64,000 nt of DNA. Origin: Escherichia coli (GTDB taxonomy: Bacteria; Pseudomonadota; Gammaproteobacteria; Enterobacterales; Enterobacteriaceae). Shown piece after piece: positions 15,635 through 57,426 of the stretch; position 1 is the first letter of the stretch; each line of letters starts with the position of its first letter. Location of the stretch: the NCBI RefSeq assembly GCF_003334785.1, contig NZ_QOWV01000004.1; one strand, 5' to 3'. The notes beneath the pieces are model-generated. The model was not told where the DNA came from. It did not search any database and saw only the letters and a list, made by a program, of their open reading frames with translations. The position numbers were made by a program, and so were the translations under genes.

Positions 15635-15752
15635 CGTTCACCTCATTCGCTATATATTGTCATATATAGCGATATTTTAGGCAAAGAACGACTTTTGCGC
15701 ACGCTATTTTTTCATGCTTGTTTAAGACGTAATCCCGTAAGAGATAAACCTA

Positions 15753-16637
15753 TCAGGAGAGATATTTATCGAACCATTTCAGTGTCCTTTGCCAGGCAAG
15801 ATCGGCGGCAGATTTGTCATAACGGGGCGTGGAATCATTATGGAATCCGTGATTAACCCCCGGATAGATATACGCCTCATAAACCTTATTATTGGCTTTC
15901 AACGCCGCCTCGTAAGCAGGCCAGCCCTCGTTGATTCGGGTGTCCAGTTCCGCGAAGTGGAGTAGTAAAGGCGCTTCAATCTTCGCCACATCGGCAGTGG
16001 GTGCCTGACGACCATAAAACGGCACCGCGCAGGCCAGTTCCGGATACGCGACAGCCGCCGCGTTCGATACGCCACCGCCATAGCAAAATCCGGTAATACC
16101 CACTTTGCCTGTCGCTTGCGGATAGCGTTGCATAAACTCAATTGCGGCAAAGAAATCATTCATCAGTTTGTTGGATCAACCTGCTGTTGCAGCTCACGAC
16201 CTTTATCATCATTTCCCGGATAACCTCCAACGGAACTTAAGCCGTCAGGTGCCAGGGCGATATACCCCGCCTTCGCCACTCGCCGTGCCACATCTTCGAT
16301 ATACGGATTCAGTCCACGATTCTCATGCACCACCACTACGGCTGGCGTTTTGCCGCTCATCTTTGCGGGCTTCACCAGATAACCCCGCACCTCGCCGTGA
16401 CCATTTGGCGAAGGATACGTGATGTACTCAGCAACAATTTCCGGGTCGGTAAACTCTACCTGAGTCGCCAGCGCATAATTTGGCTTGAGCAAATCAAACA
16501 ACGCTAATGCCGTCATCCCGCCTACCGCACTTCGCCGCAAGGTTGAGGAACTCACGTTTCGAGATTTTCCCGTGAGCGTAATAGTCATAGTAATCCAGCA
16601 ACTCTTGTGGGAAATCTTTGGCGGTTAAACGCGGCAT
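15753..16637 (-). pseudogene. yghX: Dienelactone hydrolase-family gene yghX, disrupted by two frameshifts
   Basis: Three consecutive segments in minus frames 2/1/2 (16494-16682, 16163-16588, 15753-16163) each encode sensible dienelactone hydrolase sequence. Confidence 0.85.
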
Positions 16638-16793
16638 CGTTGCACTCCTCAGTTGGTGTTTTTTTAAGCAAAGCATAAGCACGTGTTTTTGCCCAGTTTT
16701 TCGTCACTCTGTGAGCCAGACTACGGGATACGCGCTGGCGAATCGCTAAACTAGAAACATTGTTTCGAAATTGAACGGTGGAAAGGAGAGGTC

Positions 16794-32611: not shown

Positions 32612-34870
32612 TTACTCTTCGCTATCACCGCTGCTGGCACGGCGAGGAGAGTCGATCTCAACACGATCGATACGCTGCAAACCGCGCATCAACGTACCGC
32701 GGCGTCCACGTTCGCCAGTGACTTTCTGTAACTCTTCCGGGCGCAGTTTAATTTTGCGTTTCCCAACATGAATGGTCAGCGTGCTTTGCGGCGGCAGAAC
32801 GTACAATTGCGCCAGACCATCTTCTCCACGCGCGGCTTCTGCCGATGGAATGTTGATAATCTTGTTGCCTTTGCCCTTCGACAGCTGCGGCAGATCACTT
32901 ACCGGGAACATCAACATACGGCCTGCCTGAGTGATTGCCAGCAGCATATCGGAAGCATCTTCAATCACCACCGGCGGCATAACATGGGCATTTTCCGGTA
33001 AGGTGATCAAAGCCTTACCTGCACGGTTACGCGCCACCAGATCGTTAAAGGTGCAGACGAAACCGTAACCCGCATCGGAAGCCATCAGCAGTTTCTGATC
33101 GTCGCTTTCCATCAGCATATGGTCAACGGTCGCCCCAGGCGGCAACGTTAATTTGCCGGTGAGCGGCTCGCCCTGACCACGCGCCGACGGCAGCGTAATC
33201 GGGTCAATGGCATAGCTACGACCGGTGGAATCAACAAACACTACCGGTTGGTTGCTCTTACCTTTCACCGCCGCTTTGAAGCTATCACCCGCTTTATAAT
33301 TCAGGCCCGGCGCGTCGATATCATGGCCTTTAGCGCTGCGTACCCAGCCCATCTGCGACAGCACAATGGTGACAGGTTCAGACGGCAGCATGTCGTGCTC
33401 GCTCATCGCTTTCGCTTCTTCGCGTTCCTGCAACGGCGAACGACGATCGTCACCGTAGGCTTGCGCGTCTGCCTGCAGTTCTTTCTTCAGCAGGTTATTC
33501 ATTTTACGCTCGGAAGCCAAAATGCCCTGCAACTGGTCGCGCTCTTTTTCCAGTTCACTCTGCTCACCGCGAATCTTCATCTCTTCCAGTTTGGCAAGAT
33601 GACGCAGTTTCAGTTCGAGGATCGCTTCCGCCTGGGTTTCCGTAAGGCCAAACCGCGACATCAGCGCCGGTTTCGGTTCATCTTCATTACGAATGATCTC
33701 AATCACTTCGTCGATATTGAGAAACGCCACCAGCAAACCTTCGAGGATATGCAGGCGCTTGAGGACTTTCTCCAGACGATAGTTCAGTCGGCGGCGCACG
33801 GTATCGCGGCGGAACACCAGCCATTCGGAGAGGATTTCCAGCAGGTTTTTCACCGCCGGACGACCATCCAGACCGATCATATTAAGGTTAATACGATAGC
33901 TCTTTTCCAGATCGGTGGTAGCGAAGAGGTGGTTCATCACCTGATCCATATCCACGCGGTTGGAACGCGGCACAATCACCAGGCGGGTCGGGTTCTCGTG
34001 GTCAGATTCATCGCGCAGATCGTCAACCATCGGCAGCTTTTTGTTGCGCATTTGCGCAGCAATTTGCTCCAGTACGCGCGCACCTGAAACCTGATGCGGC
34101 AATGCGCTGATAACCACCGCGCCATCTTCTTTCTTCCACACCGCGCGCATACGCACTGAACCACGTCCGTTCTCGTAGATTTTACGGATCTCGGCGCGCG
34201 AAGTGATAATTTCCGCTTCAGTCGGATAATCCGGCCCCTGCACGATATCCAGCAGCTGATCGAGCGTGGTTTTCGGCTGGTCGATTAATGCGATTGCCGC
34301 CTGAGCCACTTCACGCAGGTTATGCGGTGGAATATCGGTCGCCATGCCGACGGCAATACCGGTGGTGCCGTTAAGCAAAATGTTTGGCAGACGGGCAGGT
34401 AGCATTTTCGGCTCCTGCAAAGTGCCGTCGAAGTTTGGCACCCAGTCAGCCGTCCCCTGCCCCAGCTCGCTCAATAGCAGCTCGGAATATTTCGACAACC
34501 GGGATTCGGTGTAACGCATTGCCGCGAACGATTTCGGATCGTCCGGCGCGCCCCAGTTCCCCTGACCATCAACCAGCGGATAACGGTAAGAGAACGGTTG
34601 CGCCATCAGGACCATCGCTTCATAACAGGCGCTATCGCCGTGCGGATGGTATTTACCCAGTACGTCACCGACGGTACGGGCCGATTTTTTAAATTTGGCG
34701 CTGGCATTCAGGCCCAGTTCAGACATCGCATACACAATGCGGCGCTGAACAGGTTTCAGACCATCACCAATAAACGGCAACGCACGGTCCATGATCACGT
34801 ACATGGAGTAGTTTAAGTAGGCGTTTTCCGTAAATTCATGTAGCGCAAGGCGCTCTGCCATATCGCTCAT
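32612..34870 (-). CDS. parC: DNA topoisomerase IV subunit A
   Basis: 752-aa [35 protein letters not shown]... Confidence 0.98.
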
Positions 34871-36747: not shown

Positions 36748-37143
36748 TTAACGGATTTCATTCAATAGTTCTGGATGCTTATCCAGAACACGTAAAAGTT
36801 TGATTGTGGAAGGATGAGGTTGGGCATTGCCTTTTTCGTAACGCGAAAACGCATTTACACCTCCCCCAAAAATTTCGCTTGCCTCTTTTTGGGTAAGAGA
36901 GAGCTTTTTTCGAACCTTCACTATAAATTCAGGTGCCACTGTTTCGGCATTCACCGAAGCCCGAAATGCCTTTACTTGCGCCATGAAAGCATCTGACTCT
37001 TCTTTATTCATGATGCTCTCTTCGCAATGGACACAATATAAACCGTGGATACCTTTCAATACTGTTTTTCGTCCACGGAAGGTGTATGGAATATCTTTAA
37101 TGCCAGAAACCATTTCTCCCTGGTGGCAAACCGGACATTTCAT
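36748..37143 (-). CDS. mqsA: Antitoxin / transcriptional regulator MqsA
   Basis: 131-aa ORF with N-terminal zinc ribbon (CPVCHQGEM...CVHCEES) and C-terminal HTH. Confidence 0.97.
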   Translation of the reverse strand: MKCPVCHQGEMVSGIKDIPYTFRGRKTVLKGIHGLYCVHCEESIMNKEESDAFMAQVKAFRASVNAETVAPEFIVKVRKKLSLTQKEASEIFGGGVNAFSRYEKGNAQPHPSTIKLLRVLDKHPELLNEIR

Positions 37144-37144
37144 A

Positions 37145-37441
37145 TTACTTCTCCTTAAACGAGACGATCAGTACGTCATGAATTACCGTAATTTTAAGAT
37201 AAACCTGGCCTGTAACAAGCCTGGGTCTGTAAACATCCTGTCAGATAGTATGATCAGAGTAGGTGGTCATGCTTTTATAAAAGTCGCTCTCTGATAATCC
37301 AATGATAACATTACACATACCATCAAAATCCAAACCTAACTCATCTGCATTTAACAGGGCACTACGTGTTGTACGAACTTGCCCGGCATTGACAAGTTTT
37401 TTAACCTGACTCAAACGTGTATGTGGTGTGCGTTTTTCCAT
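37145..37441 (-). pseudogene. mqsR: mqsR toxin gene interrupted by in-frame TGA at codon 67
   Basis: Open for 66 codons (MEKRTPHTRLSQVKK...SDHTI), then TGA (plus-strand tca 37241-37243); the same frame continues to encode QDVYRPRLVTGQVYLKITVIHDVLIVSFKEK before the natural stop. Confidence 0.85.
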
Positions 37442-37469
37442 AACCCCCGCCTCCCTGTTACTTTAGTTA

Positions 37470-37516
37470 TAACCTAAAAGGTTAATTACAGCAATGAAAA
37501 AGCACCTAAAAGGTTA
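37470..37516. promoter_or_regulatory. mqsRA promoter operator palindromes (MqsA binding sites)
   Basis: Two copies of ACCT-AAA-AGGT (37472-37482 and 37504-37514) upstream of mqsR. Confidence 0.8.
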
Positions 37517-54912: not shown

Positions 54913-57426
54913 GTGGATCAGATGTATAAAAAATTAAAATTAACCACAATAAGCGAATTGATTAAAAATATTTATTGTTCATTATCCGTTATCATCATTG
55001 GTTGTGCGTCAGCTTATGCCGTTGAATTCAACAAAGATTTAATCGAAGCCGAAGATCGTGAAAACGTTAACCTTTCCCAATTTGAAACTGATGGCCAATT
55101 ACCCGTCGGCAAATATTCACTAAGTACTCTGATTAATAATAAGAGGACGCCAATCCACCTTGACCTCCAATGGGTATTAATTGATAACCAAACTGCAGTT
55201 TGCGTGACACCAGAGCAATTAACATTATTAGGATTTACTGATGAATTTATTGAAAAAACTCAGCAAAACCTGATCGATGGTTGTTACCCTATCGAAAAAG
55301 AAAAACAAATTACAACTTATCTCGATAAAGGGAAAATGCAATTATCCATATCTGCACCTCAGGCATGGTTAAAATACAAAGATGCAAACTGGACGCCTCC
55401 TGAACTTTGGAATCATGGTATTGCTGGGGCATTTCTTGACTACAATTTATATGCCTCTCATTATGCACCACATCAGGGCGATAATTCGCAAAATATAAGT
55501 TCCTATGGGCAGGCTGGGGTTAATCTTGGGGCCTGGCGCCTGCGTACTGATTACCAGTACGATCAGTCATTTAACAATGGCAAAAGCCAGGCGACCAACC
55601 TGGATTTTCCGCGTATTTATTTGTTTCGCCCAATCCCAGCAATGAATGCAAAACTAACTATAGGTCAATACGATACTGAATCCTCTATTTTCGACTCTTT
55701 CCATTTTTCTGGCATTTCGTTGAAAAGCGATGAGAATATGTTACCGCCAGACCTACGTGGTTACGCACCGCAAATCACGGGTGTCGCACAAACGAATGCA
55801 AAGGTCACTGTCTCACAGAACAACCGTATTATTTATCAAGAAAATGTTCCTCCAGGCCCATTTGCTATTACCAATTTATTCAATACATTACAGGGGCAAC
55901 TTGACGTCAAGGTTGAAGAAGAGGACGGACGCGTTACGCAATGGCAAGTTGCATCTAATAGTATTCCTTATCTGACGCGTAAAGGGCAGATTCGCTACAC
56001 CACTGCTATGGGTAAACCGACCAGCGTTGGTGGTGATTCCTTACAACAACCCTTCTTCTGGACTGGTGAATTCTCATGGGGTTGGCTGAACAATGTATCC
56101 CTGTATGGTGGTTCAGTTTTAACAAACCGTGATTATCAATCTCTGGCTGCCGGCGTTGGTTTTAACCTTAACTCATTAGGTTCATTATCTTTTGATGTCA
56201 CACGATCTGATGCTCAGTTGCATAATCAGGATAAAGAAACGGGTTATAGCTACCGCGCTAACTATTCAAAACGTTTTGAATCTACCGGTAGCCAGCTCAC
56301 TTTCGCTGGTTACCGTTTCTCTGATAAAAACTTTGTGACAATGAATGAATATATCAATGACACTAACCATTACACGAATTATCAGAATGAAAAAGAGAGT
56401 TATATTGTCACGTTTAACCAGTATCTTGAATCATTAAGGTTAAATACATACGTAAGTTTGGCTCGTAATACTTACTGGGACGCCAGCAGTAATGTGAATT
56501 ATTCATTATCACTTAGCCGCGATTTTGATATCGGGCCATTAAAAAACGTCTCCACTTCTCTAACATTTAGCCGAATAAACTGGGAAGAAGACAACCAGGA
56601 TCAACTGTACCTAAATATTTCGATTCCCTGGGGAACTAGTAGAACATTGAGCTATGGTATGCAACGAAATCAGGATAATGAGATTTCGCATACTGCTTCG
56701 TGGTATGACTCTTCCGATCGAAATAATTCCTGGAGCGTTTCTGCTTCAGGCGACAATGATGAATTCAAAGATATGAAAGCGTCACTACGCGCCAGTTATC
56801 AGCATAATACCGAGAACGGTCGACTCTACCTCTCCGGTACATCACAGCGAGACAGTTATTATTCTCTGAATGCCAGTTGGAATGGTTCATTCACTGCGAC
56901 TCGCCACGGTGCCGCTTTCCACGACTATAGCGGTAGTGCTGACTCGCGTTTTATGATCGACGCAGACGGCACTGAAGATATTCCGTTGAACAATAAACGC
57001 GCGGTAACTAATCGGTATGGCATCGGAGTTATTCCATCAGTCAGCAGTTACATAACAACATCATTAAGTGTTGATACCCGAAATCTGCCAGAAAATGTGG
57101 ATATCGAAAACTCGGTTATCACCACCACCTTAACCGAGGGTGCTATTGGCTACGCCAAACTTGATACCCGCAAGGGCTACCAAATCATAGGGGTTATTCG
57201 CCTGGCAGATGGTAGTCATCCACCACTGGGGATTAGCGTAAAAGATGAAACCAGCCACAAAGAATTAGGACTGGTTGCTGATGGCGGCTTTGTATACCTC
57301 AACGGCATTCAGGATGATAACAAACTTGCTTTACGCTGGGGTGACAAATCTTGTTTTATTCAACCACCCAATAGCAGCAACTTAACCACCGGAACGGCTA
57401 TTTTACCGTGTATTAGCCAAAATTAA
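54913..57426 (+). CDS. yqiG: Fimbrial outer membrane usher YqiG, uninterrupted
   Basis: 837-aa continuous ORF, usher family; no insertion sequence present. Confidence 0.92.
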   Translation: MDQMYKKLKLTTISELIKNIYCSLSVIIIGCASAYAVEFNKDLIEAEDRENVNLSQFETDGQLPVGKYSLSTLINNKRTPIHLDLQWVLIDNQTAVCVTPEQLTLLGFTDEFIEKTQQNLIDGCYPIEKEKQITTYLDKGKMQLSISAPQAWLKYKDANWTPPELWNHGIAGAFLDYNLYASHYAPHQGDNSQNISSYGQAGVNLGAWRLRTDYQYDQSFNNGKSQATNLDFPRIYLFRPIPAMNAKLTIGQYDTESSIFDSFHFSGISLKSDENMLPPDLRGYAPQITGVAQTNAKVTVSQNNRIIYQENVPPGPFAITNLFNTLQGQLDVKVEEEDGRVTQWQVASNSIPYLTRKGQIRYTTAMGKPTSVGGDSLQQPFFWTGEFSWGWLNNVSLYGGSVLTNRDYQSLAAGVGFNLNSLGSLSFDVTRSDAQLHNQDKETGYSYRANYSKRFESTGSQLTFAGYRFSDKNFVTMNEYINDTNHYTNYQNEKESYIVTFNQYLESLRLNTYVSLARNTYWDASSNVNYSLSLSRDFDIGPLKNVSTSLTFSRINWEEDNQDQLYLNISIPWGTSRTLSYGMQRNQDNEISHTASWYDSSDRNNSWSVSASGDNDEFKDMKASLRASYQHNTENGRLYLSGTSQRDSYYSLNASWNGSFTATRHGAAFHDYSGSADSRFMIDADGTEDIPLNNKRAVTNRYGIGVIPSVSSYITTSLSVDTRNLPENVDIENSVITTTLTEGAIGYAKLDTRKGYQIIGVIRLADGSHPPLGISVKDETSHKELGLVADGGFVYLNGIQDDNKLALRWGDKSCFIQPPNSSNLTTGTAILPCISQN

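Follow-up and report, generated by a model that had tools for sequence, protein, structure and literature searches.

The window analysed here, a stretch of 64,000 nucleotides from Escherichia coli, contains the gene order ygiV-mqsR-mqsA-ygiS and thus the same locus as the one encoding the type II toxin-antitoxin (TA) pair MqsR/MqsA of K-12 (YgiU/YgiT, b3022/b3021; PDB ID: 3HI2). The order is toxin-first, the reverse of the common TA order, with mqsR located upstream of mqsA and adjoining it. Based on translation and on comparison with K-12, mqsR is a pseudogene located at 37145..37441 on the minus strand, consisting of 98 codons plus a stop, in which codon 67 is changed from TGG to TGA. When read on the minus strand from 37441 to 37145, the gene runs ATG GAA AAA ... 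CAT ACT ATC TGA CAG GAT ... AAG GAG AAG TAA, and the full 297 nt of the frame (37145-37441) translate as MEKRTPHTRLSQVKKLVNAGQVRTTRSALLNADELGLDFDGMCNVIIGLSESDFYKSMTTYSDHTI, a stop, QDVYRPRLVTGQVYLKITVIHDVLIVSFKEK and a second stop. The premature TGA (Trp67stop, or W67*) occupies 37241..37243 (-), with 37241 as the mutated base. The list of open reading frames contains a 66-amino-acid ORF at 37241..37441 (-) that terminates in this TGA, and the residual N-terminal stretch of 66 codons (MEKRTPH...SDHTI) covers 37244..37441 (-). This stretch keeps Lys56 and the β-strand 2, while Gln68, Arg72, Tyr81, Lys96 and Lys98 are gone. The 31 sense codons after the TGA, together with the native TAA (37145..37240, minus strand), are the same as in the wild type and are now untranslated. 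The native TAA is found at 37147-37145, followed by a single T at 37144 and by the ATG of mqsA at 37143-37141, leaving an intergenic gap of 1 nt. An initial annotation of this DNA had described a frame open for 66 codons that reaches a TGA and then continues in the same frame to the native stop, 1 nt before mqsA, giving a toxin without its C-terminal third. Both the ORF list and the translation bear out this arrangement, the ORF ending after residue 66 of 98.

It had also been proposed that the stop arose by a single TGG to TGA change at a position with tryptophan in the wild-type protein. The sequence of the crystallised MqsR (PDB 3HI2 chain B) reads ...HTIWQDV..., which identifies Trp67 as the wild-type residue. 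The K-12 locus has Trp67 as well, so that a stop at this codon is not a property of wild-type MqsR. Of the 98 codons of mqsR, 97 are identical to those of K-12 and PDB 3HI2_B (E = 1.8e-62, with W67 restored). A segment of 6,951 bp with the locus at its centre shows no difference between the window and the E. coli strains H3 and NCTC9087. Relative to K-12 MG1655, this segment has three differences, of which a single one, at window position 37241, falls within mqsRA. At this position the minus strand has A in the window and G in K-12, the third base of codon 67. Compared to K-12, 296 of the 297 bases of mqsR are shared, and MqsA, both operator palindromes and the mqsR-mqsA junction are identical. 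In contrast, codon 67 of the window is TGA instead of TGG and the product ends after Ile66, without Tyr81 and the C-terminal part of the β-sheet. The single change is confirmed as the sole difference from K-12 across mqsRA, but the position assigned to it in the initial annotation needs correction. The changed base had been given as 37242, whereas the two alleles differ at 37241, the third codon position, with T on the plus strand of the window and C in K-12. A search for C at 37242 as the sign of a TGG codon was also mis-specified, as 37242 is a plus-strand C, corresponding to the middle G of the codon, in both alleles.

A comparison with the mqsR alleles of other E. coli genomes had been suggested, and it finds that the TGA recurs. 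A 61-mer probe centred on the SNP was run on 5,426 complete E. coli genomes and matched 2,298 of them, indicating the presence of mqsRA in ~42% of complete E. coli genomes by this probe. The TGA was found in 16 of the 2,298 mqsR-bearing complete genomes (0.7%), as counted in the ≥99% identity band of the probe, which represents an exact match across the SNP; 14 of the 16 match at 100% over the full probe. The two carriers below 100% are most likely HSP425 and OZ547038. In HSP425, the TGA is accompanied by an IS2 element ~20 bp away, which clips the 61-mer probe. The sources of the carriers include human faeces and urine, swine, chicken, lettuce, coriander and wastewater, with the sampled carriers originating from Mexico, China, Viet Nam, Switzerland (import product) and Brazil, and one NCTC reference strain included. 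PGAP labels mqsR as 'pseudo, internal stop' in every carrier examined (H3, NCTC9087, B2, STK39-3-E, EC529 and HSP425). Two of the alleles labelled in this way, AOY60_RS19930 in H3 and EL105_RS03455 in NCTC9087, are identical in DNA to the window. There is no difference from H3 and NCTC9087 within the locus, and the window departs from them only in the distant flanks, with a variable island at 1-3100. The exact 66-amino-acid product is present on at least 1,000 contigs in a public protein collection (NCBI, ENA, MGnify, JGI, Logan). Deposited proteins with this same product have been named, for instance, 'mRNA interferase MqsR [Escherichia coli KTE161]' (BEB03555.1). The W67* allele is therefore already catalogued in RefSeq annotation and has been deposited many times as a 66-amino-acid protein. 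A paper describing the W67* allele was not found in the literature on mqsR pseudogenes and premature stop codons.

The recurrence of the allele bears on whether the TGA could be a sequencing or assembly error, or could be subject to programmed recoding by selenocysteine insertion or a suppressor tRNA. Nothing beyond the existence of the in-frame TGA itself speaks for these explanations, to which we assign practically no probability. As 16 complete genomes that were assembled independently share this base, as do at least 1,000 contigs, a sequencing error is rejected and the confirmation by raw reads that had been recommended becomes unnecessary. With respect to a suppressor tRNA nearby, ARAGORN detected zero tRNA genes within the 64-kb window. 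Furthermore, the wild-type codon is a plain TGG with identical flanks, including the downstream sequence, which indicates that no dedicated recoding signal has evolved; selenocysteine insertion or other recoding is rejected on this basis.

The effect of the truncation on the toxin can be predicted from published work on MqsR. RNA cleavage by MqsR has a strict requirement for Lys56 and Tyr81 and is abolished by K56A and Y81A, and the substrate site of the enzyme is lined by Arg72, Lys96 and Lys98 (PMC9636575). Toxicity in vivo is lost with the substitutions K56A, Q68A, Y81A and K96A (PMC2791442). An uninterrupted ORF with both of the catalytic residues is absent from the window, Lys56 being kept and Tyr81 being located past the stop. 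Because the ORF ends before Tyr81, mqsR here is a pseudogene of the MqsR family of RelE-like ribonucleases and not a functional member. Judging from the published structure and mutagenesis, the 66-residue product should be inactive as an RNase, since it is without Tyr81, Gln68, Arg72, Lys96, Lys98 and the C-terminal part of the β-sheet. The growth-arresting, GC-specific cleavage of mRNA is likewise predicted from the mutagenesis data to be absent. No in-frame ATG, GTG or TTG was found after codon 67 in the 3′ remnant of mqsR. A C-terminal fragment is therefore not expected, and a restart of translation past the TGA was rejected as a source of toxin sequence.

The MqsR fold consists of a six-stranded sheet with the strand order β1-β3-β4-β5-β6-β2, and MqsA pairs onto β2 (PMC2791442). 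We estimate that the strands β4 to β6 are lost from the truncated MqsR. As these strands join β3 to the MqsA-binding β2, the fragment would probably be unfolded and degraded. It could be considered, on the other hand, that the 66 residues form a stable protein which retains some non-catalytic role, for example in binding MqsA via β2 and modulating the binding of the operator. Most of the residues of the primary interface (Val22-Thr25, Arg26, Leu29, Asp33, Phe39 and Asp40) and some of those of the secondary interface (Thr60, Ser62 and Asp63) are indeed located within residues 1-66 (PMC2791442). However, β6, which holds β2 in place, is missing, and the interface residues Ile92, Ser94 and Gln68 are gone as well (PMC2791442). 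With half of the central sheet missing, folding of the fragment is unlikely, and there is no evidence of selection on it. We consider a stable and functional fragment to be extremely improbable.

The antitoxin gene mqsA is intact, as had been stated before, and is located at 36748..37143 (-). It encodes a protein of 131 amino acids that is the same as the K-12 MqsA (WP_000650107.1); this accession was assigned by way of carrier genomes that have the same DNA as the window at mqsA. The identical mqsA (WP_000650107.1) is found in every carrier examined. Both of the ACCT-AAA-AGGT operator sites that had been noted are also present, as ACCT-N3-AGGT palindromes in the operon promoter. The palindrome ACCTAAAAGGT has two occurrences, compared to 0.04 expected by chance, neither of them assigned to a strand. 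The MqsA operator palindrome 2 is at 37472..37482, at a distance of 31-41 nt upstream of the mqsR ATG, and palindrome 1 is at 37504..37514. A probable operon promoter, pRA, can be read from the sequence at 37466..37494 (-), consisting of TTGCTG (37494-37489), a 17-nt spacer with operator 2, and TATAAC (37471-37466); the consensus promoter scan did not detect it. A putative Shine-Dalgarno sequence of mqsA, AAGGAG, can also be read at 37151..37156 (-), 7 nt upstream of the ATG and within codons 96-97 of mqsR.

Most of the mqsA transcription in K-12 starts at pA1 and pA2, two constitutive promoters that are located within mqsR and have transcription start sites (TSSs) 111 nt apart (PMC6918082). 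Their combined strength exceeds that of the operon promoter, which is autoregulated (PMC6918082, Fraikin et al. 2019). pRA itself is active at about the background level, and the promoters of mqsA provide an excess of MqsA (PMC6918082). In the window, the promoter scan gave a promoter-like TTGTTA-16-TAAAAT at 37191..37218 (-), downstream of the TGA. This site at 37218-37191 is probably the pA1 of Fraikin et al., and the 111-nt spacing of the TSSs points to TATCAT at 37302..37307 (-), upstream of the TGA, as a candidate for the -10 box of pA2. The SNP at 37241 falls between these putative pA1 and pA2 elements and outside their hexamers. A hairpin resembling a terminator, with the sequence GGCTTGTTACAGGCC and a T-rich tail after it, is located at 37207-37221 on the minus strand, ~20 nt past the premature stop in the stretch that is now untranslated. 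The terminator scan yielded 2 sites compared to 1.1 expected, which is not above chance. Polarity caused by the hairpin at 37221-37207 was rejected, given the chance level of the scan and the position of the putative pA1, from which transcripts would in any case begin past the hairpin.

MqsA would still be made in this lineage, as neither the Shine-Dalgarno sequence of mqsA nor the promoters inside mqsR would be affected by the SNP. Expression of the antitoxin and autorepression via the two intact operators should continue. Brown et al. are said to have reported in J Biol Chem in 2013 that MqsR destabilises the MqsA-DNA complex and is not a corepressor. Repression would therefore be tighter, if anything, once the toxin is absent. 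Without MqsR to titrate MqsA or to destabilise its complex with DNA, MqsA would keep the operon promoter repressed, and the locus would then amount to a solo antitoxin/autorepressor with no toxin activity. The claim in the initial annotation that MqsA would act only as a regulator holds in part. Autoregulation of its own promoter is well supported, but a wider role is not, as Fraikin et al. 2019 could not confirm the role of MqsA as a global regulator (PMC6918082). We infer that the phrase should best be read as describing an autorepressor with no toxin left to neutralise.

The identity of the stop codon allows for a further alternative. UGA is the leakiest of the stop codons, and the premature stop of mqsR is UGA followed by C, a context that Poole, Brown and Tate reportedly found in 1995 to be the weakest for termination in E. 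coli. In K-12 derivatives, Trp-tRNA competes with RF2 for UGA, and the resulting read-through is ~2% at 37 °C, rising to ~4% at 25 °C (PMC10570021). Because tryptophan is the original residue, read-through would give the exact wild-type MqsR, an outcome that no nonsense change other than TGG to TGA would have. It can thus be envisaged that the stop is leaky, with Trp-tRNA(CCA) reading the UGA-C often enough to sustain a down-tuned but functional MqsRA in the lineage. However, the read-through figures were obtained with K-12, whose RF2 carries the weak Thr246, whereas RF2 in the carrier NCTC9087 has Ala246, with which read-through should be lower. In addition, pRA activity near background and an excess of MqsA make it unlikely that a few percent of a very low level of toxin would matter. 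The IS2 insertion of HSP425, past the stop and with no loss of mqsA, also fits with this region being dispensable. We regard a functionally leaky stop as improbable, and the read-through level is probably negligible. The idea of W67* as a 'dimmer switch', in which the allele would not be a knockout but would leave a trace of active MqsR that possibly varies with stress or temperature, is in our assessment very unlikely. If true, it could explain why the rest of mqsR is still intact in a lineage that has persisted and spread.

The reading that we favour, with high confidence, is that W67* is a natural loss-of-function allele of mqsR with a single origin, a true pseudogene that would leave a solo antitoxin/autorepressor behind. 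The evidence for a single origin comes from local haplotypes of 25-40 kb. Over window positions 25000-49999, the carriers H3, LR-64-2 and NCTC9087 are exact matches, and the nearest genomes with TGG (EC416, ETEC4090, PSJ-16, NCTC9100 and others) have 1 mismatch in 25 kb. This one mismatch must be the SNP itself because these genomes are without the TGA, and it follows that the ancestral TGG haplotype still exists. A sub-lineage of carriers, formed by B2, STK39-3-E and EC529, has six more SNPs in common in 40 kb. One of the six, at window position 37466, is present in 4 of 2,296 genomes, all of them TGA carriers (B2, STK39-3-E, EC529 and P377). It is a minus-strand C to A change that turns the probable -10 hexamer of the operon, just downstream of operator 2, from TATAAC into TATAAA at its last base, and could represent neutral drift after toxin loss or altered promoter strength. 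In HSP425, the IS2 is inserted at the window-equivalent position 37215-37220, within the 3′ part of mqsR that the TGA leaves untranslated and right at the -35 box of the putative pA1, and mqsA is intact. The same 1.3-kb insertion is seen for OZ547038 in the 25-kb comparison. Since these derived changes are nested among the carriers, they argue for a single origin followed by diversification and more decay. In most carriers, the 3′ remnant of mqsR has no more point mutations, an observation that is uninformative on selection at such low divergence. We propose that a G to A transition turned the TGG of Trp67 into TGA on a K-12-like chromosomal haplotype, and that the mutation arose once and was passed down in an E. 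coli lineage that is now widely dispersed and in which the pseudogene is starting to decay further.

Other disruptions of mqsR are found on the TGG background. Strain 203740 has an IS1 in mqsR at the window-equivalent position 37313-37321 (~codons 41-43), and CUPF09 has an IS1 at the 5′ end of mqsR at the window-equivalent position 37431-37438, just past the start codon; mqsA is intact in both. IS1 at the mqsR locus was observed in at least 11 genomes, and the other genomes annotated with a split mqsR probably have IS1 inside mqsR, as in 203740. Similar to the window, the disruptions in 203740 and CUPF09 inactivate the toxin or cut it off from its promoter and leave mqsA (WP_000650107.1) intact. 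In contrast to the window, they are IS insertions on a TGG background and represent independent events in other lineages. In strain 203740, ygiV beside mqsR is also flagged 'internal stop'.

Loss of the toxin with the antitoxin kept is the usual route of decay for chromosomal TA loci, and toxin-first is the sole viable order of loss, as losing the antitoxin first would be toxic. The window is comparable to this decay toward an orphan (solo) antitoxin, in which loss begins with the toxin and the antitoxin/repressor stays. It differs from the general case in being at the earliest stage, with one point mutation and the rest of the gene intact. Examples of solo antitoxins are provided by orphan higA genes (PMC7232551).

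Several features outside the locus were recorded during the comparison with carrier genomes. No exact match to window 1-24999 was found among the complete genomes in the collection because the first ~3 kb are the end of a divergent island. Window 1-3100 represents the edge of a variable prophage-like island (a cbeA/cbtA type IV TA neighbourhood in H3). Identity to H3 is only 91-93% over this part, which also contains indels, in contrast to the near identity of the remainder of the window. From ~3,100 on, the window tracks H3, with about nine differences over the remaining ~22 kb of the comparison. Beside the island, pitB of H3 is annotated as incomplete with its C-terminus missing (roughly window 3900-5300), and yghX of H3 is annotated as frameshifted (roughly window 15750-16640). 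At window ~54922-57271 and beyond, the fimbrial usher gene beside ygiL is labelled 'pseudo, internal stop' in three carriers whose DNA in this region has one base different from the window, and the window probably holds a second nonsense pseudogene there. At codon 80 of parC (window position 34632), the carrier sub-lineage with the 37466 SNP has Ser80Ile (AGC to ATC), the classic fluoroquinolone-resistance substitution; the window has the wild-type Ser80 and Glu84.

The window contains an ordinary toxin pseudogene beside an intact mqsA, at the classic and already known MqsRA locus, and in this respect the finding matters little beyond careful annotation. A role in phage defence was rejected for this locus, as the protective MqsRAC is a different, chaperone-containing system, and classic MqsRA has no documented role in defence (Vassallo et al. 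2022). The allele marks a segregating E. coli lineage, at ~0.7% of mqsR-bearing complete genomes, that is without functional MqsR and has kept MqsA. Together with the IS1 and IS2 disruptions, W67* fits the view that natural strains can do without the toxin of chromosomal MqsRA (compare Fraikin et al. 2019). The strains of this lineage would serve as natural mqsR-null, mqsA-positive controls for the disputed claims concerning MqsR in persistence, biofilm and bile tolerance, and MqsA as a regulator.
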